A DNA stretch of 64,000 bases, from the NCBI GenBank assembly GCA_964474085.1, contig CAYYRJ010000013.1:797-64796 (forward strand), written 5' to 3'. The notes under the pieces are model-generated. The model did not search any database, was not told where the DNA came from, and saw only the letters and a program-made list of their open reading frames with translations. The position numbers and the translations under genes were made by a program. The DNA comes from an uncultured Planctomycetales bacterium. GTDB taxonomy: Bacteria; Omnitrophota; Gorgyraeia; Zapsychrales; JANLHA01. Below, piece after piece: positions 16,755 to 63,968 of this stretch. Numbering within the stretch: position 1 is the first letter of the stretch; the number at the start of each line of letters is the position of its first letter.

Positions 16755-17575
16755 GCTACAAGCTTAAGCTGGATATTTTTGAAGGGCCGCTGGATCTTTT
16801 GTTGTTTTTGATCAAGAAAAACGATATCGATATTTATGATATTCCCATCGTCAAGGTCACCGAGCAGTATCTTGAATATATTGAAATGATGAAAATGCTC
16901 GACTTGGAAGTTGTCGGCGAGTTTTTGGTGATGGCGGCTACTCTTTTGCAGATTAAGTCCAAGATGCTTCTGCCGCCGGACCCCAGCGGATTGGAAGAAC
17001 CGGAGATTGACCCACGTGAGGAATTGGTGGCACGTTTGCAGGAGTATCGTGTTTTTAAGGAAATTGCCGAACAGCTAAAAGGCAAGGAAGGCGAGCGGCA
17101 AAACTTTTTTACCCGCCAAGTCGACGAAGAGACGCGTAAAGCGCTTGAGAACGATGCAAAAGAAGTTTTTTTTGAAGCGAGCTTGTTTGACTTGATCAAT
17201 GCGTTTAGTGCGGCGTTGTCCAAACTAAAAGAAGAAAAAAGTTATGAAGTTTCCAAAGAAGAATTTACCGTCGAGCAAAAAATCCACGACATTTTACATT
17301 CTCTTCTTAATGAACCGCGGTTATTGCTGACAGATATTTTTGCAAAAGCAAAGTCCAAGGTCGAGATGATTGTTTCTTTTATGGCTATTTTAGAGCTCAT
17401 TCGTCTTAAAGAAATTGTTGTCGCTCAAAAGCGATTGTTTTCCGATATTGAAGTATTGCGTAATCGGGAGAATGTCATCCCGTCTGCTCAGTTGGAGGTT
17501 GTCCAAACGGATCAGCCGCCCAACGTTCAAGCTCCTTTGGCCATCGGAGAAGATCAAAATGTCCCAGATGCCTGA
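16751..17575 (+). CDS. scpA: segregation and condensation protein A
   Basis: ScpA family N-terminal motif (GPLDLLLFLIKKN). 274 aa. Confidence 0.85.
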   Translation: MSYKLKLDIFEGPLDLLLFLIKKNDIDIYDIPIVKVTEQYLEYIEMMKMLDLEVVGEFLVMAATLLQIKSKMLLPPDPSGLEEPEIDPREELVARLQEYRVFKEIAEQLKGKEGERQNFFTRQVDEETRKALENDAKEVFFEASLFDLINAFSAALSKLKEEKSYEVSKEEFTVEQKIHDILHSLLNEPRLLLTDIFAKAKSKVEMIVSFMAILELIRLKEIVVAQKRLFSDIEVLRNRENVIPSAQLEVVQTDQPPNVQAPLAIGEDQNVPDA

Positions 17576-18620
17576 TTTGCCGCAAACACTTGAACGGCGC
17601 AAACTCATCCTCGAACAGGAAACAGAAGAGGACAAGGTCGTCAGCCTTTCTTTGCGCCCGTCGAAACTGGATGAATTTATCGGTCAAAAAGATTTGGTCG
17701 AAAATTTGCACGTTTCGCTGGGGGCGGCCAAACAGCGGGGTGAGCCACTTGAGCATATGTTGTTTTCTGGTCCACCGGGGTTAGGCAAAACGTCTTTGGC
17801 ATATATTATTTCGCATGAAATGGGCGTGCGCATTACGGTGACATCCGGACCGGCGATTACGCGTGCGGGGGATTTGATCGGGATTCTGACGAATTTAGAA
17901 CATGGAGATATTTTATTTATCGACGAGATTCATCGATTGTCAAAAGTCGTTGAGGAGTTTCTTTATCCGGCGATGGAAAATTACAAAATTGACTTTATCG
18001 TTGATAAAGGGCCGTATGCGCGCACGGTCAATTTTAATTTAAAGCCTTTTACCATCATTGGGGCGACGACGCGCAGCGGGCTTTTGGCTTCGCCTTTGCG
18101 TGACCGGTTCGGGATTTTTCATCATTTGGAATTTTATTCGCCGCAGGATTTGTGTGAAATTGTTTTAGCTTCCGCCCAAAAACTCAATGTGACCATTAGT
18201 CCCGAAACCGCGATTGCGATTGCCCGGCGGGCGCGCGGTACGCCGCGGATTGCCAATCGGCTTTTGCGCCGTGTGCGGGATTTTGCGCAGGTGAAAACTG
18301 GCAAAGCGCTCATTGAACTTAGTCTTGTGGATGAGGCGATGCGCACACTTCGGATTGATGAAATGGGTTTGGACGAAATCGACCGGCGTTTGCTTAAAGT
18401 TATCCAGGAACAATATCAGGGTGGGCCCGTCGGAGTTGAGACCTTGGCGGCTACGCTTAACGAAGAAATCGACACGCTAGTCGATGTTTTGGAGCCTTAC
18501 CTTTTAAAAATCGGCTTTTTAAAACGCACGGCTCGCGGGCGCGAAATCACCGAGTCAGCGCTGCGTCATTTGGGCGCCGAGATTGTGCGCGGTAAAAAAG
18601 CTCAGAACGAATTATTTTAA
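17559..18620 (+). CDS. ruvB: Holliday junction branch-migration helicase RuvB
   Basis: GPPGLGKT Walker A. DEIHRL Walker B. Start chosen at MSQMPDLP (ATG 17559); the ORF track shows a longer upstream frame. Confidence 0.9.
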   Translation: MSQMPDLPQTLERRKLILEQETEEDKVVSLSLRPSKLDEFIGQKDLVENLHVSLGAAKQRGEPLEHMLFSGPPGLGKTSLAYIISHEMGVRITVTSGPAITRAGDLIGILTNLEHGDILFIDEIHRLSKVVEEFLYPAMENYKIDFIVDKGPYARTVNFNLKPFTIIGATTRSGLLASPLRDRFGIFHHLEFYSPQDLCEIVLASAQKLNVTISPETAIAIARRARGTPRIANRLLRRVRDFAQVKTGKALIELSLVDEAMRTLRIDEMGLDEIDRRLLKVIQEQYQGGPVGVETLAATLNEEIDTLVDVLEPYLLKIGFLKRTARGREITESALRHLGAEIVRGKKAQNELF

Positions 18621-18631
18621 TTTAATGTTCT

Positions 18632-18659
18632 GTAGGGAACAGGCATGCCTGTTCCCTAC
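18632..18659. repeat. GTAG-headed palindrome of a second sequence family, immediately after the ruvB stop
   Basis: gtagggaacaggcatgcctgttccctac. Perfect 12-bp arms around catg. Confidence 0.6.
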
Positions 18660-40623: not shown

Positions 40624-40923
40624 TGCCATGTGCAAGTTTTATTTACCGACTTGGGAAAGTCCTTTTAGGCTCAATTGTTTTGCGCCTCTATGGCGCCATT
40701 CGCCTTAAAAGGGCTTCCCGAGTCGGGGCTTCATTTGCCATCGCGTTATTTAGCTAGATTTGAAAAATTTTTAAAGAAAATTTGCCTTTCTCGGGGAGTT
40801 TCTTTATACTTATGTGTATCTTATCTGTATTTATCTTTTGTAGCATCTCCATTTGACAGTATTTATTTGTTTTATCTAAAGAGGAAAAACTCTGTGCAGT
40901 CTCTCTTTCATCGAGATAGTCTA

Positions 40924-43704
40924 ATGTTTTTCAGAAAAATAATCAGCAGTTTTATTGTGTTGACGTTTTTGACGTCGCTTGTCGTCGTTCCGGCAGGGGG
41001 CCAGGTTTTTCTGGATGTCGCAACGTCCATTAACGCAAATGCTGGGTATCAGCCCCCCGTACTTTTAGGACTTAAAATCCATCCCGAAAATCCGCTTTTG
41101 TTTGATTTTATCGTCGACCAAGGGCAATCGAAACTTTCGACAGACGAACTAAAAGAGGAAACAACTAAGCTCGTCAAATATTTTCTCGCGGCGTTAACCA
41201 TTCCGGACAAAGAAGTTTGGGTCAACCTTTCGCCGACCGAAAAAGATCGAATTATTCCTGATGTTTTGGGCCAGACGACGATGGGCAAAACGATGCTTGA
41301 GCAGGATTATGTTTTAAAGCAATTGGCCGCCTCGCTCACCAATCCCGAAACGGATTTGGGGAAGAAATATTGGGAGCAGGTTAATGGGGCAAGGACGCTA
41401 GACGTTAGACGTTGGACGTTGGAAAAAACACCCAGCGTCCAGCCTCCAGCGACCAGCGATTTTAACAAGGTTTGGATCATGCCGGAAAAGGCCGAAGTTT
41501 TGGAAAGTAACGGGATTGTTTTGGTTGGCGAAAAGCGGTTGAAGGTGATGCTGGATGAGGAATATCAAGCCGTAGGGGCGTATTGCAATACGCCCCTACA
41601 GAAAAATGTTATTTCCTCCCAAATTTTCCGCACCACCATCCTTCCAACCATCGAAAAGGCCGTCAATGAAGGCAAAGAATTTGCCGACGTGCGTCAGATT
41701 TACAATTCCGTTATCCTCGCCGCATGGTACAAAAAGGCTTTAAAAGAAAGTTTGCTGGGCAAGATTTATACTGACAAAGGCAAAGTTGCCGGTGTTGAAA
41801 CCGACGACAAAACGATGAAACAACGCATTTATGAGCAATATTTAGCCGCCTTTAAAAAAGGCGCGTACAACCTGATAAAAGAAGAAGCCGACGAAAATGG
41901 TGATCTAATTCCGAGGAAATATTTTAGTGGGGGAATTGAGATTGCTGCATTTGGCGATGGGGCCAGGTCTTCATTGACAGAAAGAACCGTTTCATTACGA
42001 CAAGTAGAAGGGAGGATTGAAGGGATTAGTTCCAGCGTCGCTGTGACGGTCCAATTAGCCGCTACTAAAGATGAGTCTGGCGTGGTTTCCAGTGCCGCAA
42101 CGCAAGGAGAAGATGTTATTTTCGCCGCCGCCTCAAACTCTCTTCGACAAGATCCCAGCAGAAAAGTCAGTTATGGAAATACAAAATACCATTTGAGCAC
42201 AGTTATTAAAATTTTAGAAGAACTTGTTAATTATTGGGATGGTCAAGAGGATAATCCTGATAAATTTGCTACTCATGGCGTGCACGGCAAAATAATCACG
42301 AGTGTTCAACTGCTCTCTGCTCCCGGCGTTACTTTTTCGCTTGATGATATCCGTTTTAAATCCATATTTTTGGATAATTTAGTTAAACAGTTGAAAGTTC
42401 AAAATATCAAACGTCTTGACCCGATTAGGCTCTTTCAAGTTTGGGTTTCTCAAGATTTCAAATTAAATTTTGCTATTTCTAATTCTCAGAGAGTTAAAAA
42501 TATTACCATCGAGGATGCTAGGGCGATTTTTTTTAGAGACCTTTTACCGCTTATTAGGGATGAACTTCAAAAGTATTCGGACAATGCTGACCCCCAGCAA
42601 GCCTATTGGAGGACTGTTTCGGAAAGGACATCGGTTTTACTCAGTGGCCCTGTACAAAGAATCCAAGCAGTTTTGGATGCAAGCTATGATAAATTTCATC
42701 AAACAGGACACTTTCATGATTTAAACGCAATTTTATCGGATCCCTCCAGGGGCAGGTTGCGAGAAAGCTTTTCGAATATCCAAAATGTTATCGCCGAGGT
42801 TTTGGGTGACACTCAGAGTTTTGCATCCCAAAAAGCAGTGTTAGTGGGACAGCAAACCTATCCTCAGACAGAGAAAGCGGCCTATGTCAACGAAAGTTTT
42901 ATTCACGCAACACTTGTGAGTGATATTTTTTCAAGTTGGAAACAGAATGTGCGATTTCGAGAAAAACTAGCTTCAGAAACTTCACGAGTAGAAAAGCCAC
43001 TTGTTCAGGTCAAAGGTGTCCATCTGATGCCTGATTTAAGTGTTGCTTTTGAATTACAGGAAGTCAGGTGGAGACAGAACTCGAATGTTTTGAAAACCGT
43101 TAAAGAAACAGCAGCCCAACTAGCAGAAGATAACGGCCAAGCGCCTCGATATTTTCCAGACACGCTTGCCGCAACTGTTGCATATTTGTTTGGAAATGAT
43201 ATCAGTCGCAGCCAGCTTTTAGAACTTAATAGTCGTTTTAGTGAAATTAATATTCAATTGCAAAAAGATCCGATTACGTTTTTTATTGACGAAATGCAGT
43301 TGCAAAGCGGAACAAAAAAAGGATTTGTGGTTACTCGCAGTAAAACGCTCAAATTTTCCGCTTCGAGCGGGGTTGATGACAAGGTGAATGTTGCCTCAGC
43401 GCCCGTCGGAGGGCTTGACCGCCAAGTCGGCGGTATCGACTTTGACCCGACGAGCATGAATTTGCAAATTAAGCGCGACGGACGTGGTGTGCCGCTGCCA
43501 TTGCCGCAACAGAATTTGGAACAGATCAATATTCAGGGCTTGTTTCCCGTTATCATCAACATTACACCAATCAATGCGCAGACTTTGCCGATCTTTTTAG
43601 GGTTTACCCGCCCAAATTCTGGCGGTGGGCAGTCCTTTGAATCTTTTGGCGGGCAAGTGCCCAAAGAACCGGCCAAGGAAATTGAACAAGTCGCGGGGAC
43701 CTGA
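40924..43704 (+). CDS. large secreted protein A (926 aa). Its N-terminal ~400 aa domain is paralogous to protein B. Function unknown.
   Basis: Signal peptide at MFFRKIISSFIVLTFLTSLVVVPAGG. The N-terminal domain aligns with ORF 46345-50502 (WVNLSP...DRIIP; KVWI(M/V)P(E/D)KA). Contains an in-frame REP and an in-frame heptad-repeat hairpin. The ORF-track start 40675 is probably upstream junk. Confidence 0.7.
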   Translation: MFFRKIISSFIVLTFLTSLVVVPAGGQVFLDVATSINANAGYQPPVLLGLKIHPENPLLFDFIVDQGQSKLSTDELKEETTKLVKYFLAALTIPDKEVWVNLSPTEKDRIIPDVLGQTTMGKTMLEQDYVLKQLAASLTNPETDLGKKYWEQVNGARTLDVRRWTLEKTPSVQPPATSDFNKVWIMPEKAEVLESNGIVLVGEKRLKVMLDEEYQAVGAYCNTPLQKNVISSQIFRTTILPTIEKAVNEGKEFADVRQIYNSVILAAWYKKALKESLLGKIYTDKGKVAGVETDDKTMKQRIYEQYLAAFKKGAYNLIKEEADENGDLIPRKYFSGGIEIAAFGDGARSSLTERTVSLRQVEGRIEGISSSVAVTVQLAATKDESGVVSSAATQGEDVIFAAASNSLRQDPSRKVSYGNTKYHLSTVIKILEELVNYWDGQEDNPDKFATHGVHGKIITSVQLLSAPGVTFSLDDIRFKSIFLDNLVKQLKVQNIKRLDPIRLFQVWVSQDFKLNFAISNSQRVKNITIEDARAIFFRDLLPLIRDELQKYSDNADPQQAYWRTVSERTSVLLSGPVQRIQAVLDASYDKFHQTGHFHDLNAILSDPSRGRLRESFSNIQNVIAEVLGDTQSFASQKAVLVGQQTYPQTEKAAYVNESFIHATLVSDIFSSWKQNVRFREKLASETSRVEKPLVQVKGVHLMPDLSVAFELQEVRWRQNSNVLKTVKETAAQLAEDNGQAPRYFPDTLAATVAYLFGNDISRSQLLELNSRFSEINIQLQKDPITFFIDEMQLQSGTKKGFVVTRSKTLKFSASSGVDDKVNVASAPVGGLDRQVGGIDFDPTSMNLQIKRDGRGVPLPLPQQNLEQINIQGLFPVIINITPINAQTLPIFLGFTRPNSGGGQSFESFGGQVPKEPAKEIEQVAGT
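41402..41469. repeat. heptad minisatellite arranged as an inverted pair (long hairpin), in-frame inside the protein A gene
   Basis: aaggacg ctagacg ttagacg ttggacg ttgg, then aaaaaacaccc, then cagcgtc cagcctc cagcgac cagcg. Encodes GARTLDVRRWTLEKTPSVQPPATS. Confidence 0.6.
41572..41599. repeat. REP element embedded in-frame in the protein A gene
   Basis: gtaggggcgtattgcaatacgcccctac, encoding VGAYCNTPL. Confidence 0.8.
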
Positions 43705-56568: not shown

Positions 56569-58272
56569 ATGCCCGCACTTCTTACCCAAAAATTTTGGCA
56601 AGTTCGCAACCCTGATCCCTTTCTCCAAGTTTATTTAAGCAATGCTTTAAAAGTCCATCCACTGATCGCCCAGGTGCTGGCCAATCGTGGGATTACCAGC
56701 GCCGATGAGGGAAAAGAGTTTTTGTCCGCTGACTTAAACACTTTGCATGACCCTTTTCTTCTTAAAGATATGGACCGGGCTGTTTTGCGGATCCGGCAAG
56801 CGAAAGAGAACAAGGAAAAAGTTTTGGTTTTTGGCGATTATGACGTCGATGGGGTCACGTCGTCTGCCCTTTTGTATAAAATTTTTACCCGCTTAGGAAT
56901 TGCGGTGAGCAATCACATTCCGCATCGTATGTCCGACGGTTATGGCTTGAATGATTCGATCGGCCAAATTGCCAAAGAGGCGGGGATCAAACTTTTAATT
57001 GCCGTCGATTGCGGGATTACCGCAATTCGTGAAGTCGCACTTTTAAATGCGCTAGGCATTGACGTTATTATTCTGGACCATCACGAGCCGTCGGTGGAAG
57101 GTCTGCCTGCGGCATTTGCGATTGTGGATCCCAAACGCCATGATTGCAGTTATCCGTTTAAACATTTAGCTTCCGTCGGGCTGGTTGCAAAACTTTCGCA
57201 GGCACTTTTTGGAAAAGTCCCGGAAGAATACTTGGATTTGATTGCGCTGGGCACGATTGCGGATGTGGTGCCACTGCGTGGGGAAAACCGGATTTTTGTC
57301 AAAAACGGAATGCCGAAGTTAGGCGAAACCAAAAATTTTGGTCTTGCCGCTTTAATCGACGGCGCTAAGATCCGCGGCAAAAAGTTTAGGCCTCATTATG
57401 TTGGTTTTATTTTAGGCCCGCGCATTAATGCGACGGGGCGCATGGGCTCGGCTCACAAATCTCTTGAGCTTCTTTTGTCGTGCGATGGGCCGACGGCTTT
57501 TGGTTTGGCGCAAGAGCTTGAAGAATTTAACAGCGAACGTCAGCGACTTCAAAAGCAAGTTGTCGAAGAAGCGATGCAGATGATCGAACAGGAAATCAAT
57601 TTTAAAGAACATAAAGTGATTGTCTTATGCCAACAAGGTTGGCACAAAGGCGTTTTGGGCATTGTTGCTTCGCGTGTGGCCGAAACGTATTATCGGCCGA
57701 CGATTATTATTTCGCTGGAAAATGGCGTCGGGACAGCGTCCGCGCGGTCGATTGAAGGCTTTCACTTAAATGAAGCGCTTGAGCATTGCTCGGAGATTTT
57801 AGTGACCTTTGGCGGACACAAACTTGCCGCTGGCCTAACGATTAAAGAGGAACATGTCGAGAATTTTAGACGTAAGATCAACGATTTTGCCAAAGATATT
57901 TTGGAAATCCGCAATATGATTCCCACCATCTCCATTGACGCAGAAGTTTCGCTCTCTTCGCTGAGCTTGGAAGTCGCCCAGCTGATTGAAAGTTTAGAGC
58001 CCTACGGCGAGGGCAATGCGACCCCGGTGTTTTGTTCTCGCCAGCTGGTGGTCAAAAGTCCGCCGAGCTTGATGGGCAAGGACACGATTAAATTTTGGGT
58101 AAGCGACGGGCAAAGCAGCATTTCGGCGGTGGGTTTTGGCATGGCCAAGTACGCGGATTTAGTCCGTCCCGGCGCCCAAGTCGACCTTGCCTATGAATTG
58201 ACCATTGATGATTGGAACAAAAGCCCCGTGCCACAGCTAAAGCTCAAGGACATTCGCGAGAGCGGGGGGTAG
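56569..58272 (+). CDS. recJ: single-stranded-DNA-specific exonuclease RecJ
   Basis: DHH motifs (VFGDYDVDGVTS, DHH at ILDHHEP). DHHA1 GGH motif. 567 aa. Confidence 0.9.
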   Translation: MPALLTQKFWQVRNPDPFLQVYLSNALKVHPLIAQVLANRGITSADEGKEFLSADLNTLHDPFLLKDMDRAVLRIRQAKENKEKVLVFGDYDVDGVTSSALLYKIFTRLGIAVSNHIPHRMSDGYGLNDSIGQIAKEAGIKLLIAVDCGITAIREVALLNALGIDVIILDHHEPSVEGLPAAFAIVDPKRHDCSYPFKHLASVGLVAKLSQALFGKVPEEYLDLIALGTIADVVPLRGENRIFVKNGMPKLGETKNFGLAALIDGAKIRGKKFRPHYVGFILGPRINATGRMGSAHKSLELLLSCDGPTAFGLAQELEEFNSERQRLQKQVVEEAMQMIEQEINFKEHKVIVLCQQGWHKGVLGIVASRVAETYYRPTIIISLENGVGTASARSIEGFHLNEALEHCSEILVTFGGHKLAAGLTIKEEHVENFRRKINDFAKDILEIRNMIPTISIDAEVSLSSLSLEVAQLIESLEPYGEGNATPVFCSRQLVVKSPPSLMGKDTIKFWVSDGQSSISAVGFGMAKYADLVRPGAQVDLAYELTIDDWNKSPVPQLKLKDIRESGG

Positions 58273-58287
58273 GATCTTTAAAATTCT

Positions 58288-58313
58288 GTAGGGGCGTATT
58301 GCCATACGCCCTT
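58288..58313. repeat. REP element (GTAG-headed palindrome, ttgcca-centre variant)
   Basis: gtaggggcgtattgccatacgccctt. 8-bp stem gggcgtat/atacgccc. Confidence 0.75.
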
Positions 58314-58324
58314 CTTCAAAAGCT

Positions 58325-59365
58325 ATGCCTACCAAATCAAAACAATCCATTATTAAATCTGTAGACATTAGCAGTTATTCGTCGCTGGTTAAGCTGGTGC
58401 GGGAAGAATTTGCGAGTTTGGAATTTTTTGTCAAAAGCCGAACGGTACAGGGATATTGGCAGGTCGGAAAGTTCGTTCACGACCATCTTTTGCACCACCA
58501 AGAACGCGCAGAATACGGCAATCAACTCTTTGAGCGGCTGGGAAAAGATTCGGGAAGAGATTCAAGTACTTTGCAAAAAATGTTGAGGTTTTATCGGACG
58601 TATCCAATTCTGGCAACGTTGCCAGAATTGACGTGGAGTCATTTTTTGGCTTTAATGGCTGTTAAAGATAAAGGGGAAAGAATTCGGCTTGAAAAAGAAA
58701 TTATTCAAAAAGAGTGGGATGTCCGTAAGCTCCAGAAATATTTGAATATTAAACGCAAATTGGTTCCTGCCGGTGCGAATTCGTCTGTCCCGCAATTAAA
58801 GTTTACCCGTGGCAGGCCGCATATTTACCAGATTATAAAAGCGGTCCCGCCGCTTTTGGCCCAGCATCCCTTGGTTTTGGATTTGGGCTTTCGTTTACAA
58901 GATACAATTCCCGCCAATGAGCTGGGTTTAAAAGAGCAGGACTTTGTGGAACTTATTATTAAGGGAAATAAAATCGTCGGTGTAGGAACGACCCAAGTCG
59001 AAAAGGACGAACTATTCACTTACGCGGCGAGCGTCCAAAAAGTTGTCGACGGGGATACCTTGATTGCGACGCTGGATTTTAAAAGCACTTTTAGCATTAG
59101 TCAAAAAATGCGTCTGCGCGGGATTGATTGCCCGGAGCTCGACACTGAGGAAGGCCAGAAGGCCAAACGTTTTGTCGAAGATCGCCTGAAGAATTGTGAT
59201 TTTATTATTGTGAAAACTTACAAAGACCGCACCGACCGTTTTGACCGGTATTTGGCGGACATTTTTTATTGGCCCGGCGAAGCTGATGAAAACAAAGTTG
59301 CCCGTCAGGGGAAATATCTTAATCAGGAGCTTTTGGACGAACGTCTGGCGGTGGTGTACGTGTGA
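58325..59365 (+). CDS. fusion protein: YhcG/DUF1016-type N-terminal domain plus C-terminal staphylococcal-nuclease (SNase/thermonuclease)-like domain
   Basis: The N-terminus resembles the DUF1016 N-domain (YWQVGKFV..., TLPELTWSHFLALMAV). The C-terminus resembles SNase (DGDTLIATLD...MRLRGIDCPE...ERLAVVY). Flanked by REPs. Confidence 0.6.
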   Translation: MPTKSKQSIIKSVDISSYSSLVKLVREEFASLEFFVKSRTVQGYWQVGKFVHDHLLHHQERAEYGNQLFERLGKDSGRDSSTLQKMLRFYRTYPILATLPELTWSHFLALMAVKDKGERIRLEKEIIQKEWDVRKLQKYLNIKRKLVPAGANSSVPQLKFTRGRPHIYQIIKAVPPLLAQHPLVLDLGFRLQDTIPANELGLKEQDFVELIIKGNKIVGVGTTQVEKDELFTYAASVQKVVDGDTLIATLDFKSTFSISQKMRLRGIDCPELDTEEGQKAKRFVEDRLKNCDFIIVKTYKDRTDRFDRYLADIFYWPGEADENKVARQGKYLNQELLDERLAVVYV

Positions 59366-59370
59366 TTTTT

Positions 59371-59395
59371 GGGACGTATTGCCATACGCCCTTAC
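59371..59395. repeat. REP element variant
   Basis: gggacgtattgccatacgcccttac followed by the conserved tail acaaatg. Confidence 0.7.
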
Positions 59396-59544
59396 AAATG
59401 TATTTCGTTGACCATTTCAAACCTTTGGAAAGAATTTTCTTCCCAAAATCTGTTTGCCCCCATCGTTGCCCAGTGATAATATTTACCAGCCCCTTTAAGA
59501 ATTCCCCAATTAAAAATTCTACCCCTCTGTTTTCAGGAGGAGTT

Positions 59545-60063
59545 ATGTCAAAGATTATCATCCCGTTAGAGCGTATCGAAAAGAAGATCTATTTGATTCG
59601 AGGACACAAAGTCATGTTCGATTTTGATTTGGCGGAACTTTACGAAGTGCCAACCAAGCGTCTTAAAGAGCAGGTTAAACGTAATATCGGTAGATTTCCG
59701 GATGATTTTATGTTTCAATTGACCCTTGAGGAAGTCAAAATCTTGAGGCCGCAAATTGCGACCTCAAGTTGGGGCGGTTCACGTTATTTGCCATATGTTT
59801 TTACTGAACAAGGGACGGCCATGTTATCGAGCGTATTAAGCAGTCAACGGGCTATCGCTGTTAACATTGCTATAATCCGTGCGTTCGTTAAACTGCGGGA
59901 AATGATGGCGACCCATCATGATCTTGCAAAAAAGATCAATGACCTTGAAAGACAGTACAAAGATCACGATCAAAAGATTGTTATGATTTACGAAGCGATA
60001 CGTAATCTCATGACTCCGGCGCAGGAGCCAGCTAAGCGTAAAATTGGATTTCATGCGGATTAA
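59545..60063 (+). CDS. ORF6N-domain DNA-binding protein (mobile-element associated), copy 1
   Basis: IRGHKVMFDFDLAELYEVPTKRLKEQVKRNIGRFPDDFMFQLT matches the ORF6N pattern. GGAGG RBS. Confidence 0.7.
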   Translation: MSKIIIPLERIEKKIYLIRGHKVMFDFDLAELYEVPTKRLKEQVKRNIGRFPDDFMFQLTLEEVKILRPQIATSSWGGSRYLPYVFTEQGTAMLSSVLSSQRAIAVNIAIIRAFVKLREMMATHHDLAKKINDLERQYKDHDQKIVMIYEAIRNLMTPAQEPAKRKIGFHAD

Positions 60064-60067
60064 AAAA

Positions 60068-60094
60068 CAGGGGCGTAGGAGAATACGCCCCTAG
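60068..60094. repeat. REP-like palindrome (ggagaa-loop variant)
   Basis: caggggcgtaggagaatacgcccctag. 9-bp stem. Identical copy at 63218. Confidence 0.7.
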
Positions 60095-60180
60095 ATAACA
60101 CGAAAGAAATTTTCTTATAGAATATTATATTAATTAATCCGTACGGCTATCCCCACCGTCTTTAATCGAAGGGAGATGCC

Positions 60181-60717
60181 ATGCGTGATCTAAAACGAAA
60201 ATCCATTCGGCTAAAAACATTTAACTACTCTCAGGTTGGCGCTTATTACATTACTCTCTGTTCTTTGAATCGCACATGCTTATTTGGTGAAATATGTGAT
60301 GATCAGGTAACATTAAGCCCTTTTGGAAAAATTGTTTTCTATGAATGGTTAAATACACCGATTCTACGACCCAATATTCAATTGGATGAATTTATTGTCA
60401 TGCCGAATCATTCCCATGGGATTATTATAATTAATGAAACCTGTAGGGGCGTATTGCAATACGCCCCTACAAATATGTTTCGTTCACCATTGCAAACCGT
60501 TGGGGCGATTGTACGCGGCTTTAAATCTGCGGTAACAAATAAAATCAACATATTAAGAAAATCGCCAGGTCAACCTGTTTGGCAACGAAATTATTTTGAA
60601 CACATTATTCGCGATGATTCTGATATGGAACGCATTCGGGAATATATTTACAATAATCCAAAGAATTGGGAAACAGATGAAAATAATCAGGAGAGATCAA
60701 TAGGGTCTGCGGATTGA
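60181..60717 (+). CDS. REP-associated tyrosine transposase (RAYT; IS200/IS605-like HuH Y1 transposase), copy 1
   Basis: 178 aa. HuH motif MPNHSHGII. Catalytic Tyr block WQRNYFEHIIRD. Cognate GTAG-headed REP palindromes nearby and inside the gene. Confidence 0.8.
   Translation: MRDLKRKSIRLKTFNYSQVGAYYITLCSLNRTCLFGEICDDQVTLSPFGKIVFYEWLNTPILRPNIQLDEFIVMPNHSHGIIIINETCRGVLQYAPTNMFRSPLQTVGAIVRGFKSAVTNKINILRKSPGQPVWQRNYFEHIIRDDSDMERIREYIYNNPKNWETDENNQERSIGSAD
60443..60470. repeat. REP element (perfect palindrome) embedded in-frame in the RAYT gene
   Basis: gtaggggcgtattgcaatacgcccctac, encoding RGVLQYAPT. Confidence 0.8.
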
Positions 60718-60848
60718 TGGACATCGTAATTTGAATTAATCAAAGTCCTGGTAGGGATTCTCTAAACACATACCGTAACCCGAATTAAAGGTAAAGAAAT
60801 TTGTTGCTGAAAGATAAGGTTTCGGTATGTGGCTGGGGTTTCAAATTA

Positions 60849-60912
60849 CGTCATCCTGAGCGAAGCGAAGGATCTCGGTGGAGATTCTTCGGCCTTCGGC
60901 CTCAGAATGACG
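60849..60912. repeat. MITE-like palindromic element, related family (GTCATCCTGAGCGAAGCGAAGG)
   Basis: cgtcatcctgagc ... gcctcagaatgacg. Internal ggccttcggcc hairpin. Confidence 0.55.
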
Positions 60913-61872: not shown

Positions 61873-61914
61873 GACTAGGGAAAGTGTTTTAGACTCAGAT
61901 CTGCGGGTGCCTAA

Positions 61915-62007
61915 GTTGACCTTGCCTATAAATTGACCATTGACGATTGGAATAAAAGCCCCGTGCCACAACTAAAGCTCAAAGATATTCGGGAGAGCGG
62001 GGGGTAG
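61915..62007 (+). repeat. diverged direct repeat of the recJ 3' end (duplicate of 58180-58272)
   Basis: 93 nt with about 9 mismatches. It translates in frame to VDLAYKLTIDDWNKSPVPQLKLKDIRESGG*, which differs from the RecJ C-terminus at one residue. Confidence 0.8.
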
Positions 62008-62067
62008 CAGGGTGGGGCAAGGTTGCCGGCGAGGGCATTAAGTTCAATAAAAATAGGAGTGAAAAAT

Positions 62068-62493
62068 ATGGTTGAGAATAAAAAACCATTGATTGGCATT
62101 GGGTTTCTTGTTGCATTTGCGTTTGTGTGGGGAATAATTTCGTACTTTTCAATGGCAATGTTTGTAGGGAGCATGAGTGGGAGATTAGCCCCTGTTGACT
62201 ACGTGCGCCCGTGGACTAGTTATTTTTTGTTCAGTAAAGATTTTCTAATAAATATTTTGATTTGGGTAATAATCGTTTTGCCGTTTATTTCTGGGATCGG
62301 TCTTTTAATCGGAAAGAATTGGGCGCGGATATTGTATATTGCCTGTTGTTCTGCTCAAATGTTTTGGGTTTTATTTAATATTGTCAAGAATTTTTCTGTC
62401 GGTGCTATTCCGTTTATTTTACTTTACGTGTGTATTTTTTCTTTTCCGATTTGGTATTTGAATCGTTCAAAAGTCAAAGAACAATTTAAGTAG
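62068..62493 (+). CDS. small integral membrane protein, hypothetical
   Basis: Four predicted transmembrane segments. Its stop codon lies in the GTAG head of a REP. Confidence 0.45.
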   Translation: MVENKKPLIGIGFLVAFAFVWGIISYFSMAMFVGSMSGRLAPVDYVRPWTSYFLFSKDFLINILIWVIIVLPFISGIGLLIGKNWARILYIACCSAQMFWVLFNIVKNFSVGAIPFILLYVCIFSFPIWYLNRSKVKEQFK

Positions 62494-62517
62494 GGGCGTA
62501 TTGAAATACGCCCTTAC
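62490..62517. repeat. REP element (ttgaaa-centre variant)
   Basis: gtaggggcgtattgaaatacgcccttac. The TAG of the GTAG head is the stop codon of the upstream membrane-protein gene. Confidence 0.7.
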
Positions 62518-62703
62518 TATTAAATCCCCCAACCCCCTTTGTTAAAGGGGGAGCCGCAGGCGGGGGATTTGAATGAAAAGTAGGTGTTTCGATATTTTTG
62601 TGCAAAAATCTATTTGCCCCCATCATTGTCGAGTGATAATATTTACCAGCCCCGTAAGAATTCCCCAATTAAAAATCCTACCCCTCTGCCTTGAGGAGGA
62701 GTT

Positions 62704-63213
62704 ATGTCAAAGATTGTTATTGAACAAGAATGGATTGAACGCAAAATTTATTTTATTCGGGGTAAGAAAGTCATGGTTGATCGTGATTTAGCCGAATTAT
62801 ACGAGGTCCCAACGAAATCATTAAATCTTGCAGTTAGGCGTAATGCAGATCGTTTTCCACAAGATTTCATGTTTCAATTGACAGCACAGGAAGCAGAAAT
62901 CTTGAGGTTTCAATCTGAAACCTCAAGTTGGGGTGGGCAACGATACTTGCCGTATGTTTTTACTCAATAGGGTGTTGCTATGCTTTCGGGTGTCTTAAGG
63001 AGCAAGCGTGCGGTTAATGTCAATATAGAAATTATGCGTGCTTTTGTCCGCTTACGACAAATTTTATCTGTACATAAGGAGTTGGATCGCAAACTTCAAG
63101 ATTTAGAAAAAAAATACGACAATCAGTTTAAAGCTGTCTTTGATGCTATTCGTCAGTTGATGACTCCGGCGCAGGAGCCAGCTAAGCGCAAAATTGGATT
63201 TCATGCGGATTAA
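62704..63213 (+). pseudogene. ORF6N-domain protein, copy 2, interrupted by in-frame TAG at 62971-62973
   Basis: Same frame as copy 1 on both sides of the stop (62704-62970 and 62980-63213). Copy 1 has caaggg where copy 2 has tagggt. Confidence 0.7.
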
Positions 63214-63217
63214 AAAA

Positions 63218-63244
63218 CAGGGGCGTAGGAGAATACGCCCCTAG
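63218..63244. repeat. REP-like palindrome (ggagaa-loop variant)
   Basis: Identical to 60068-60094. Confidence 0.7.
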
Positions 63245-63330
63245 ATAACACGAAAGAAATTTTCTTATAGAATATTATATTAATTAATCCGTACGGCTAT
63301 CCCCACCGTCTTTAATCGAAGGGAGATGCC

Positions 63331-63867
63331 ATGCGTGATCTAAAACGAAAATCCATTCGGCTAAAAACATTTAACTACTCTCAGGTTGGCGCTTATTACA
63401 TTACTCTCTGTTCTTTGAATCGCACATGCTTATTTGGTGAAATATGTGATGATCAGGTAACATTAAGCCCTTTTGGAAAAATTGTTTTCTATGAATGGTT
63501 AAATACACCGATTCTACGACCCAATATTCAATTGGATGAATTTATTGTCATGCCGAATCATTTTCATGGGATTATCATAATTAATGAAACTGGTAGGGGC
63601 GTATTGCAATACGCCCCTACCAAAGCATTCCGTTCACCGTCTCAAACGATTGGATCGATTGTGCGTGGGTTTAAAGGTGCGGTAACAAATAAAATTAATA
63701 CGTTGAGAAAATCGCCAGGTCAACCTATTTGGCAACGAAATTATTTTGAACACATTATTCGTGATGATTTTGACATGGAACGCATTCGGGAATATATTTG
63801 CAATAATCCAAAGAATTGGGAAACAGATGAAAATAATCAGGAGAGATCAATAGGGTCTGCGGATTGA
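63331..63867 (+). CDS. REP-associated tyrosine transposase (RAYT), copy 2
   Basis: 178 aa, about 93% identical to copy 1. HuH motif MPNHFHGII. WQRNYFEHIIRD block. Internal REP. Confidence 0.8.
   Translation: MRDLKRKSIRLKTFNYSQVGAYYITLCSLNRTCLFGEICDDQVTLSPFGKIVFYEWLNTPILRPNIQLDEFIVMPNHFHGIIIINETGRGVLQYAPTKAFRSPSQTIGSIVRGFKGAVTNKINTLRKSPGQPIWQRNYFEHIIRDDFDMERIREYICNNPKNWETDENNQERSIGSAD
63593..63620. repeat. REP element embedded in-frame in RAYT copy 2
   Basis: gtaggggcgtattgcaatacgcccctac. Confidence 0.8.
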
Positions 63868-63941
63868 TGGACATCGTAATTTGAATTAATCAAAGTCCTG
63901 GTAGGGATTCTTTAAACACATACCGTAACCCGAATTAACTC

Positions 63942-63968
63942 GTAGGGACGTATGGCCTACGCCCTTAC
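63942..63968. repeat. REP element variant
   Basis: gtagggacgtatggcctacgcccttac followed by acaaatg. Confidence 0.6.

Follow-up and report, generated by a model that had tools for sequence, protein, structure and literature searches.

A double-foot REP palindrome carried in frame by two subclass 2.4 RAYT genes in an Omnitrophota-like genome

The window analysed here, a 64-kb stretch of DNA from an Omnitrophota-like genome, contains two RAYT (TnpA_REP) genes and a gene for a large protein, each of which carries one exact copy of the same 28-nt palindrome, GTAGGGGCGTATTGCAATACGCCCCTAC (Table 1). One further copy, with two mismatches, was found in the window, and no matches were expected by chance (100 dinucleotide shuffles). 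In looser form, the stem recurs at 58292, 59372, 60071 and 63221. The first-pass annotation had placed a perfect REP in both RAYT genes, within the interval between the HuH and Tyr motifs and read as RGVLQYAPT, and a further copy in what it called the giant protein A gene. We recovered all of these exactly, at 60443 and 63593 in the RAYT genes, where the REP encodes residues 89-97 of both proteins, and at 41572 in the large-protein gene, where ORF 40675-43704 reads the palindrome in frame as VGAYCNTPL. The palindrome has the architecture GTAG-GGGCGTATTGCAATACGCCC-CTAC, which is that of a double-foot REP as found among the Table S1 entries in the accessible part of PMC6006769. It folds into a 14-bp stem, with a calculated stability of -32 kcal/mol for the RNA hairpin (z = -5.3, 90-nt context) and -16.2 kcal/mol for the DNA hairpin (z = -7.5).

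Table 1. Genes and REP-related features of the 64-kb window, in order of position
Feature	Position	Strand
Large-protein gene, 927 aa from Met 40921; conserved N-terminal domain broken by two repeat-filled linkers	40921..43704	+
REP identical to that in the RAYT genes, in frame, read VGAYCNTPL, in the second hypervariable linker of the large Omnitrophota protein	41572..41599	
Degenerate extragenic REP GTAGGGGCGTATTGCCATACGCCCTTCT, directly 3' of ORF 56569-58272	58288..58315	
Degenerate extragenic REP TTTGGGACGTATTGCCATACGCCCTTAC, directly 3' of ORF 58325-59365	59368..59395	
Hairpin resembling a REP and sharing its stem (GGGGCGTA...TACGCCCC), without GTAG foot, ~90 nt 5' of RAYT copy 1	60069..60092	
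RAYT / TnpA_REP gene copy 1, 178 aa; NHSH, WQRNY, YIYNNP	60181..60717	+
Perfect double-foot REP (GTAG...CTAC), read RGVLQYAPT, in RAYT copy 1	60443..60470	
REP with 2 mismatches; the TAG within its GTAG foot is the stop codon of ORF 62023-62493, and it overlaps the 3' end of that gene	62490..62517	
Identical REP-like hairpin 5' of RAYT copy 2	63219-63242	
RAYT / TnpA_REP gene copy 2, 178 aa; NHFH, WQRNY, YICNNP; subclass 2.4 signature	63331..63867	+
Identical REP, read RGVLQYAPT, in RAYT copy 2	63593..63620	
Degenerate double-foot REP GTAGGGACGTATGGCCTACGCCCTTAC, 75 nt 3' of RAYT copy 2, where the duplicated module has its right edge	63942..63968	

All three perfect copies of the 28-mer in the window are intragenic, and every extragenic copy is degenerate. 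In a REPtron, cognate REPs flank the gene within about 1 kb. Around the RAYT genes themselves, the 5' hairpins share the stem of the internal REP and have no GTAG; a degenerate REP follows copy 2, and no downstream REP was detected at copy 1. An imperfect inverted repeat, gtcatcctgagcgaagcgaaggatc...ctcagaatgac, lies at 60840-60905, 3' of copy 1, and it may resemble a widespread small repeat. Elsewhere in the window, a different double-foot REP, GTAGGGAACAGGCATGCCTGTTCCCTAC, occupies 18632-18659, an intergenic position directly 3' of ORF 17415-18620; no cognate RAYT for it was seen in the 64 kb.

The two RAYT ORFs are 93% identical. In both of them the REP-encoded residues follow the HuH motif (H77-x-H79) and precede the catalytic tyrosine (Y155, in REYIxNNP), and the codons beside the REP are unlike, giving ETC-RGVLQYAPT-NMF in one copy and ETG-RGVLQYAPT-KAF in the other. 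Both proteins have W134-Q135 (WQRNY), and the tyrosine motif YIxNNP reads YICNNP in copy 2 and YIYNNP in copy 1. The HuH consensus NH[IFV]H is matched by copy 2 (MPNHFHG), and copy 1 (NHSH) deviates from it at the middle residue. With His-Ser-His instead of His-hydrophobic-His at 60409-60417, copy 1 may be catalytically impaired or inactive, yet its internal REP is perfect.

The match of these proteins to the Pfam transposase family was weak. Against Pfam PF01797 (Y1_Tnp), copy 2 scored 25.6 bits and copy 1 21.4, with a gathering threshold of 23 and an alignment covering profile positions 61-121 only. The NCBIfam equivalog NF047646 (REP_Tyr_transpos) was not reached, with 51.8 and 53.6 bits against a cutoff of 80 and matches to the C-terminal half only, and we rejected membership in that family on the curated cutoff. 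A profile built from 45 homologues matched a single protein among the PDB sequences, 4ER8, which is E. coli TnpA_REP bound to a REP hairpin. Consistent results came from an AlphaFold (AF2) model of the RAYT protein (pLDDT 83, pTM 0.79): a Foldseek search with this model ranked 4er8_A first (E = 5e-7, TM 0.58/0.63), with the ISDra2 and IS608 transposases next. In the model, a coil at residues 85-106 connects the HuH strand (77-84) to a helix (107-125), and pLDDT falls below 50 at residues 91-96. The REP-encoded residues are thus predicted to sit in a disordered loop.

The E. coli enzyme (YafM; the REP/BIME system, subclass 2.2) shares the HuH/Y1 fold with the window proteins, and its REP, like the window REP, is a GC-rich hairpin whose foot bears the guide tetranucleotide GTAG. 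In a profile alignment, however, the spacing from HuH to WQ is much shorter in E. coli (HMH 58-60, WQ 94-95) than in the window proteins (HFH 77-79, WQ 134-135), and therefore the extra loop is absent from E. coli TnpA_REP. The REPs of E. coli are imperfect and bulged, with a single foot, and none is known to lie inside the E. coli TnpA_REP gene. The IS200 and IS608 transposases belong to the same enzyme superfamily as the window RAYTs, and for them, too, DNA hairpins are recognition elements. Those hairpins lie outside the ORF, in the 5' UTR or at the ends of the element, whereas the window hairpin lies within an ORF, and the gene does not belong to an IS with defined boundaries. For IS200, transposase expression is limited by hairpins close to the gene.

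A close match to the window genes was found in the literature. Quentin, Siguier, Chandler and Fichant (2018, BMC Genomics 19:475; PMC6006769), in the part of the paper available to us, describe TnpA_Y1 subclass 2.4, equivalent to Bertels' RAYT group 4, by the motifs NH[IFV]H, WQ and YIxNNP, a length of ~194 aa and a variable insertion between beta3 and alphaC. The REPs of this subclass are described there as 'double foot', with 5' GT[AG]G and 3' C[TC]AC, and the occurrence of REPs in frame inside the tnpA_REP gene is part of the same description. An in-frame REP within its own transposase gene is therefore already known, and what the first-pass annotation had taken for a local curiosity turns out, on that account, to be a hallmark of the subclass. 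The window shares with it the HuH/WQ/YIxNNP signature, the beta3-alphaC insertion and the 28-nt perfect GTAG...CTAC palindromes, and the homologues of the window RAYTs are scattered over many phyla, as the subclass is. By these characters, which fit the definition published in the accessible text, the window genes are members of TnpA_Y1 subclass 2.4 (RAYT group 4). The host is different, since the same text stresses Cyanobacteria and Bacteroidetes and the window comes from an Omnitrophota-like genome. Also unlike the subclass as described there, the window gene is present twice, in a segmental duplication, and the flanking REPs are degenerate.

This duplication comprises window positions 58171-60788 and 61906-63938. 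Within it, a 102-nt copy, 90% identical, of the 3' end of ORF 56569-58272 precedes middle genes that differ between the modules (DUF1016_N/SNase versus a small ORF that is hydrophobic and membrane-like); an ORF6N gene (about 78% identical between the copies) and then the RAYT gene come next. REP-like hairpins are present at the junctions. The first ORF6N gene (about 59545-60063) is intact, and the second (62704-63213), which an in-frame TAG at 62968-62970 breaks up into ORFs 62704-62970 and 62980-63213, is probably a pseudogene. The ORF6N gene 5' of RAYT was considered as a conserved RAYT partner and rejected, as tblastn returned no homologue of it in 80 related loci. Between the two module copies, the segment 60010-60412 is near-identical, which suggests recent gene conversion.

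A database search returned 1903 homologues of the window RAYTs. The 45 closest come from Omnitrophota, Nitrospirota, Deltaproteobacteria, Chloroflexi, cyanobacteria, Planctomycetes and other groups, and in these the peptide RGVLQYAPT is at least 90% invariant. Such invariance favors the possibility that the peptide is the selected feature, for example as a protein motif, and that the palindrome is a coincidence of coding. For a broader comparison we used 80 genomic loci of 12 kb from many phyla, with 82 aligned genes (loci are cited below by L numbers). In this alignment, the segment 3' of the HuH motif is hypervariable, also in length, and its peptide is nearly always of the kind that a GC-rich palindrome yields on translation. 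The peptides include RGVLQYAPT, VGAYCNTPLQ, RGTLQRAPT, RGDRPVAPT, RGGSRTAPT, VGAQHAAPL and VGATRRVAPT, and their DNA takes the form of perfect or near-perfect palindromes, GTAGGGGC-N6/N6'-GCCCCTAC.

These data speak against selection on the peptide in several ways. Some genes translate the 28-mer as RGVLQYAPT, and related genes translate the very same sequence as VGAYCNTPLQ; other clades encode, from perfect palindromes, the unrelated peptides RGTLQRAPT, RGDRPVAPT, RGGSRTAPT and VGAQHAAPL. Moreover, the segment is predicted to be disordered, synonymous positions within it are conserved (see below), and the same 28-mer is dispersed outside genes. The first-pass annotation had named as the case against itself orthologues from REP-free genomes with the same peptide encoded by a non-palindromic sequence. 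No such gene was found among the 82, which show the opposite: the peptides differ, the palindromes are there nearly always, and the identical palindrome is read in another frame at the same position of the RAYT. We regard the two-frame reading, together with the unrelated palindrome-encoded peptides, as an effective refutation of peptide selection, to which we give hardly any credence. Chance or coding coincidence is likewise ruled out by the shuffles, which gave 0 matches, and by control segments of the same genes, which lack such hairpins.

Hairpin arms with at least 10 matches occurred in 67 of the 82 variable segments, compared with 3/82 and 0/82 for two control segments of the same genes. 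About 15 of the 82 homologues have no clear hairpin and carry unrelated loop sequence instead (L078, L046, L058, L059, L079), and thus the hairpin is dispensable for the gene. Where present, the palindrome is found at the same place in homologues of about 45-60% protein identity from many phyla. This, along with the unlike flanking codons of the two window copies, agrees with the earlier view that the internal REPs do not stem from a single recent event.

A relaxed GTAG...CTAC pattern was present in 54 genes, which together have 26 distinct inner stems, and 48 of the 54 are fully complementary. The GTAG foot begins in codon phase 0 in 23 genes and in phase 1 in 31, and never in phase 2, because a TAG stop would then arise. 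Its distance from the HuH motif is most often 22-25 nt, with extremes of 15 and 118 nt. Sister genes can differ in phase even when the REP is the same, as in L025 and L050, and the loops of L016, L026, L034, L035, L045, L065, L068 and L072 hold 2-5 tandem or overlapping internal REPs (for L072, VGATRRVAQGVGATRCVAQGATRRVAPTG). The internal REP can therefore expand in place. At about half of the loci, the same lineage-specific core recurs, with 0-2 mismatches, directly 5' or 3' of the gene. Two extragenic copies differ from their internal counterparts by paired, compensatory changes and are still perfect palindromes: that at L036 (7576-7603) has GCATGG/CCATGC versus the internal GCACGG/CCGTGC, and that at L050 (3692-3719) has the foot GTTG/CAAC versus GTAG/CTAC. 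We set aside a comparison of how perfect the internal and the external palindromes are, since the way the internal elements were selected biases it. The REPs within L019/L027 and L033 are identical to GTAGGGGCGACCGGCCGGTCGCCCCTAC and GTAGGGGCACAGCGCGCTGTGCCCCTAC, which are among the 28-nt double-foot REPs of Table S1 in the accessible part of PMC6006769.

Much of this variation is what would be expected if REPs had inserted repeatedly and independently into a permissive surface loop, with essentially no effect on fitness, each insertion being recent and none retained for long. The same reading is implied by Quentin et al., who suggest, in the part of PMC6006769 available, that the peripheral loop may tolerate inserted REPs. 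The peripheral location given there and the disorder seen in our model, the variable distance between HuH and GTAG, the use of both phases (also between sister genes) and the tandem copies are all in its favor, as is the presence of REPs in frame in unrelated genes, including the large-protein gene of the window and the genes reported in PMC3733652. Other observations are difficult to reconcile with neutrality. The control segments show that other parts of the gene do not collect hairpins although other loops exist. The type of stem is clade-specific across deep branches. In addition, more than 80% of the family would have been hit in one small gene, whereas only about one fifth of the listed metagenome copies of the 28-mer are in any long open frame. 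On balance, we find purely neutral insertion unlikely.

Stem type was compared with protein phylogeny using an NJ tree of the conserved core. The stem follows the protein clade, with GTAT, GGTTCG, ACG.., GACCCG and GCAGCA/GACGCA groups, and core protein identity is 0.61 within a stem type versus 0.55 between types, a difference that was reached in 0 of 2000 permutations. Together, these comparisons show that the hairpin co-diversifies with the enzyme, its inner stem shifting by compensatory pairs and following the protein clade.

Conservation at the nucleotide level was also evident. In the GTAT group, identity at synonymous third positions is 0.75 within the palindrome and 0.46 outside it. 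For the two window paralogues, the most divergent block of the genes is 60413-60555, and within it the 28 nt of the REP show 0 differences versus 28 differences in the 115 nt elsewhere (p about 0.001). Conserved synonymous sites and unchanged paralogous copies are features expected of a selected, heritable cis-element that would travel with the subclass 2.4 gene and co-evolve with the specificity of the enzyme. As an autoregulatory site, a role that the first-pass annotation had suggested, it could be bound or nicked by RAYT as a single-stranded DNA hairpin of its own gene, or act as an mRNA hairpin that throttles translation or is cleaved; it may also, or instead, be a linked 'seed' that re-founds or homogenizes the REP family. 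The near-universal presence at one position of the gene, the persistence of perfect palindromes at 45-60% protein identity, the high stability of the hairpin and the restriction of the perfect window copies to genes all point in the same direction. The homologues without a clear hairpin count against it, and the phase flips and tandem arrays resemble turnover rather than a fixed regulatory site. A further objection is that most of the exact metagenome copies listed are far from any RAYT. We consider a selected cis-element of this kind a possibility, albeit a rather doubtful one. If it were true, the constraint of the DNA hairpin would be what mainly shapes the coding sequence here, and the protein would read through in either stop-free phase.

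The dispersal of the 28-mer was examined in metagenomes, where at least 126 exact copies of GTAGGGGCGTATTGCAATACGCCCCTAC were found on at least 120 stretches. Among the matches listed, 8 copies are in a RAYT homologue, 4 are within 300 nt of one and 114 are on stretches without a RAYT; about 20 of 106 usable copies among those listed are spanned on both sides by a long open frame. The 28-mer is thus a REP, as had been proposed from the window, that is, a dispersed repetitive palindrome whose copies are mostly extragenic. Since most of the listed copies are far from a RAYT, the internal copy is not the main reservoir of the repeat among these matches, and the idea that it is the main or sole one found no support, given 114 of the 126 listed copies with no RAYT nearby. 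The tie between the internal copy and the genomic REP population rests on the 64-kb window, the 12-kb loci and this metagenome sample.

The third perfect copy resides in a protein for which no Pfam family was matched. Members of its Omnitrophota family share a conserved N-terminal domain of about 400 aa and vary at the C-terminus. When 41 sequences were aligned, VGAYCNTPL was located in a hypervariable linker flanked by two well conserved blocks, which end in ...KRLKVMLDEEYQ before the linker and resume with SSQIFRTTILP... after it. The same linker is empty in many homologues, and in others it reads IARSPQGDAAI, SSPNVLIGDP...RFRGND or GNGRDRSLQ, the last of which looks, by back-translation, like another GTAG double-foot REP. 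VGAYCNTPL itself is common to a few close relatives, and one homologue, P0124, has copies in both linkers. Because the linker is empty or holds other repeat peptides in homologues, the 41572 copy is a tolerated in-frame insertion and, as judged from this alignment, an ordinary case of REP insertion into a hypervariable linker. The first linker of the window protein, at 41395-41470, contains an in-frame inverted repeat of its own, gacgttagacgttggacgttgg...ccagcgtccagcctccagcg, read as ARTLDVRRWTLEKTPSVQPPATSD, and homologues share the same or expanded versions of it. The translation of the GTAGGGAACAGGCATGCCTGTTCCCTAC REP (GNRHACSL) was also noticed in a linker of the homologue P0131.

GTAG REPs have been found within many unrelated genes (Di Nocera et al. 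2013; PMC3733652). Such intragenic GTAG/CGTC REPs and the Rickettsia palindromic elements (RPEs, cited therein) are short palindromes in frame that add ~9-30 residues in loops or linkers, and the 41572 copy is of the same kind. Unlike the genes described there, its host belongs to an uncharacterized Omnitrophota family in which two linkers collect several repeat families. The suggestion of the first-pass annotation that REP invasion is tolerated in linkers fits the large protein; for RAYT, tolerance is also the reading put forward in the accessible part of PMC6006769.

Taken together, the reading that we prefer, with a probability of roughly 0.8, is that the window RAYTs are of subclass 2.4 and carry their cognate double-foot REP in frame in the beta3-alphaC loop, with the DNA palindrome maintained and the peptide a passenger. 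The element is read in two phases, it yields unrelated palindrome-encoded peptides and its third phase would be a TAG stop; therefore, it is the symmetry of the DNA that is kept. By this preferred account, the RAYT-dependent processes that sustain REPs across the genome would also uphold the internal palindrome, candidate routes being re-insertion beside or into a resident REP and gene conversion by other copies. Both the phase flips and the internal tandem arrays fit maintenance by such routes. The loop would tolerate whichever 9-10 residues result, and a very stable hairpin in the gene and in its mRNA would be a by-product. If the hairpin had a function, purifying selection would leave the same pattern as re-insertion or gene conversion. 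The degenerate REPs flanking the window genes count against the preferred account, as may copy 1, whose NHSH motif makes it putatively inactive and whose REP is nevertheless perfect. Binding or cutting of the cognate REP by the window RAYTs would be expected on this account, and an in vitro cleavage and strand-transfer assay on single-stranded REP has been described (Corneloup et al. 2021; PMC8266576).

Because the feature has already been published for TnpA_Y1 subclass 2.4, as the available part of PMC6006769 makes clear, the window mainly adds an example from Omnitrophota. The two phases with their TAG exclusion, the count of compensatory stems and the concordance between stem and clade were not found in that text; they are refinements and do not amount to a new kind of system. 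The exclusion of the TAG phase, the 26 compensatory stems tracking the protein tree and the synonymous conservation do sharpen the question of whether the internal REP is neutral or functional. In genome annotation, peptides like RGVLQYAPT, VGAYCNTPL, RGDRPVAPT and VGNGRDRSLQ should be recognized, wherever a predicted protein contains them, as the mark of a translated REP. For the biology of the family, these genes illustrate that the recognition hairpin of a mobile DNA can reside within the gene of the enzyme that recognizes it, and that the sequence of a coding loop can be set by DNA symmetry and not by protein function.
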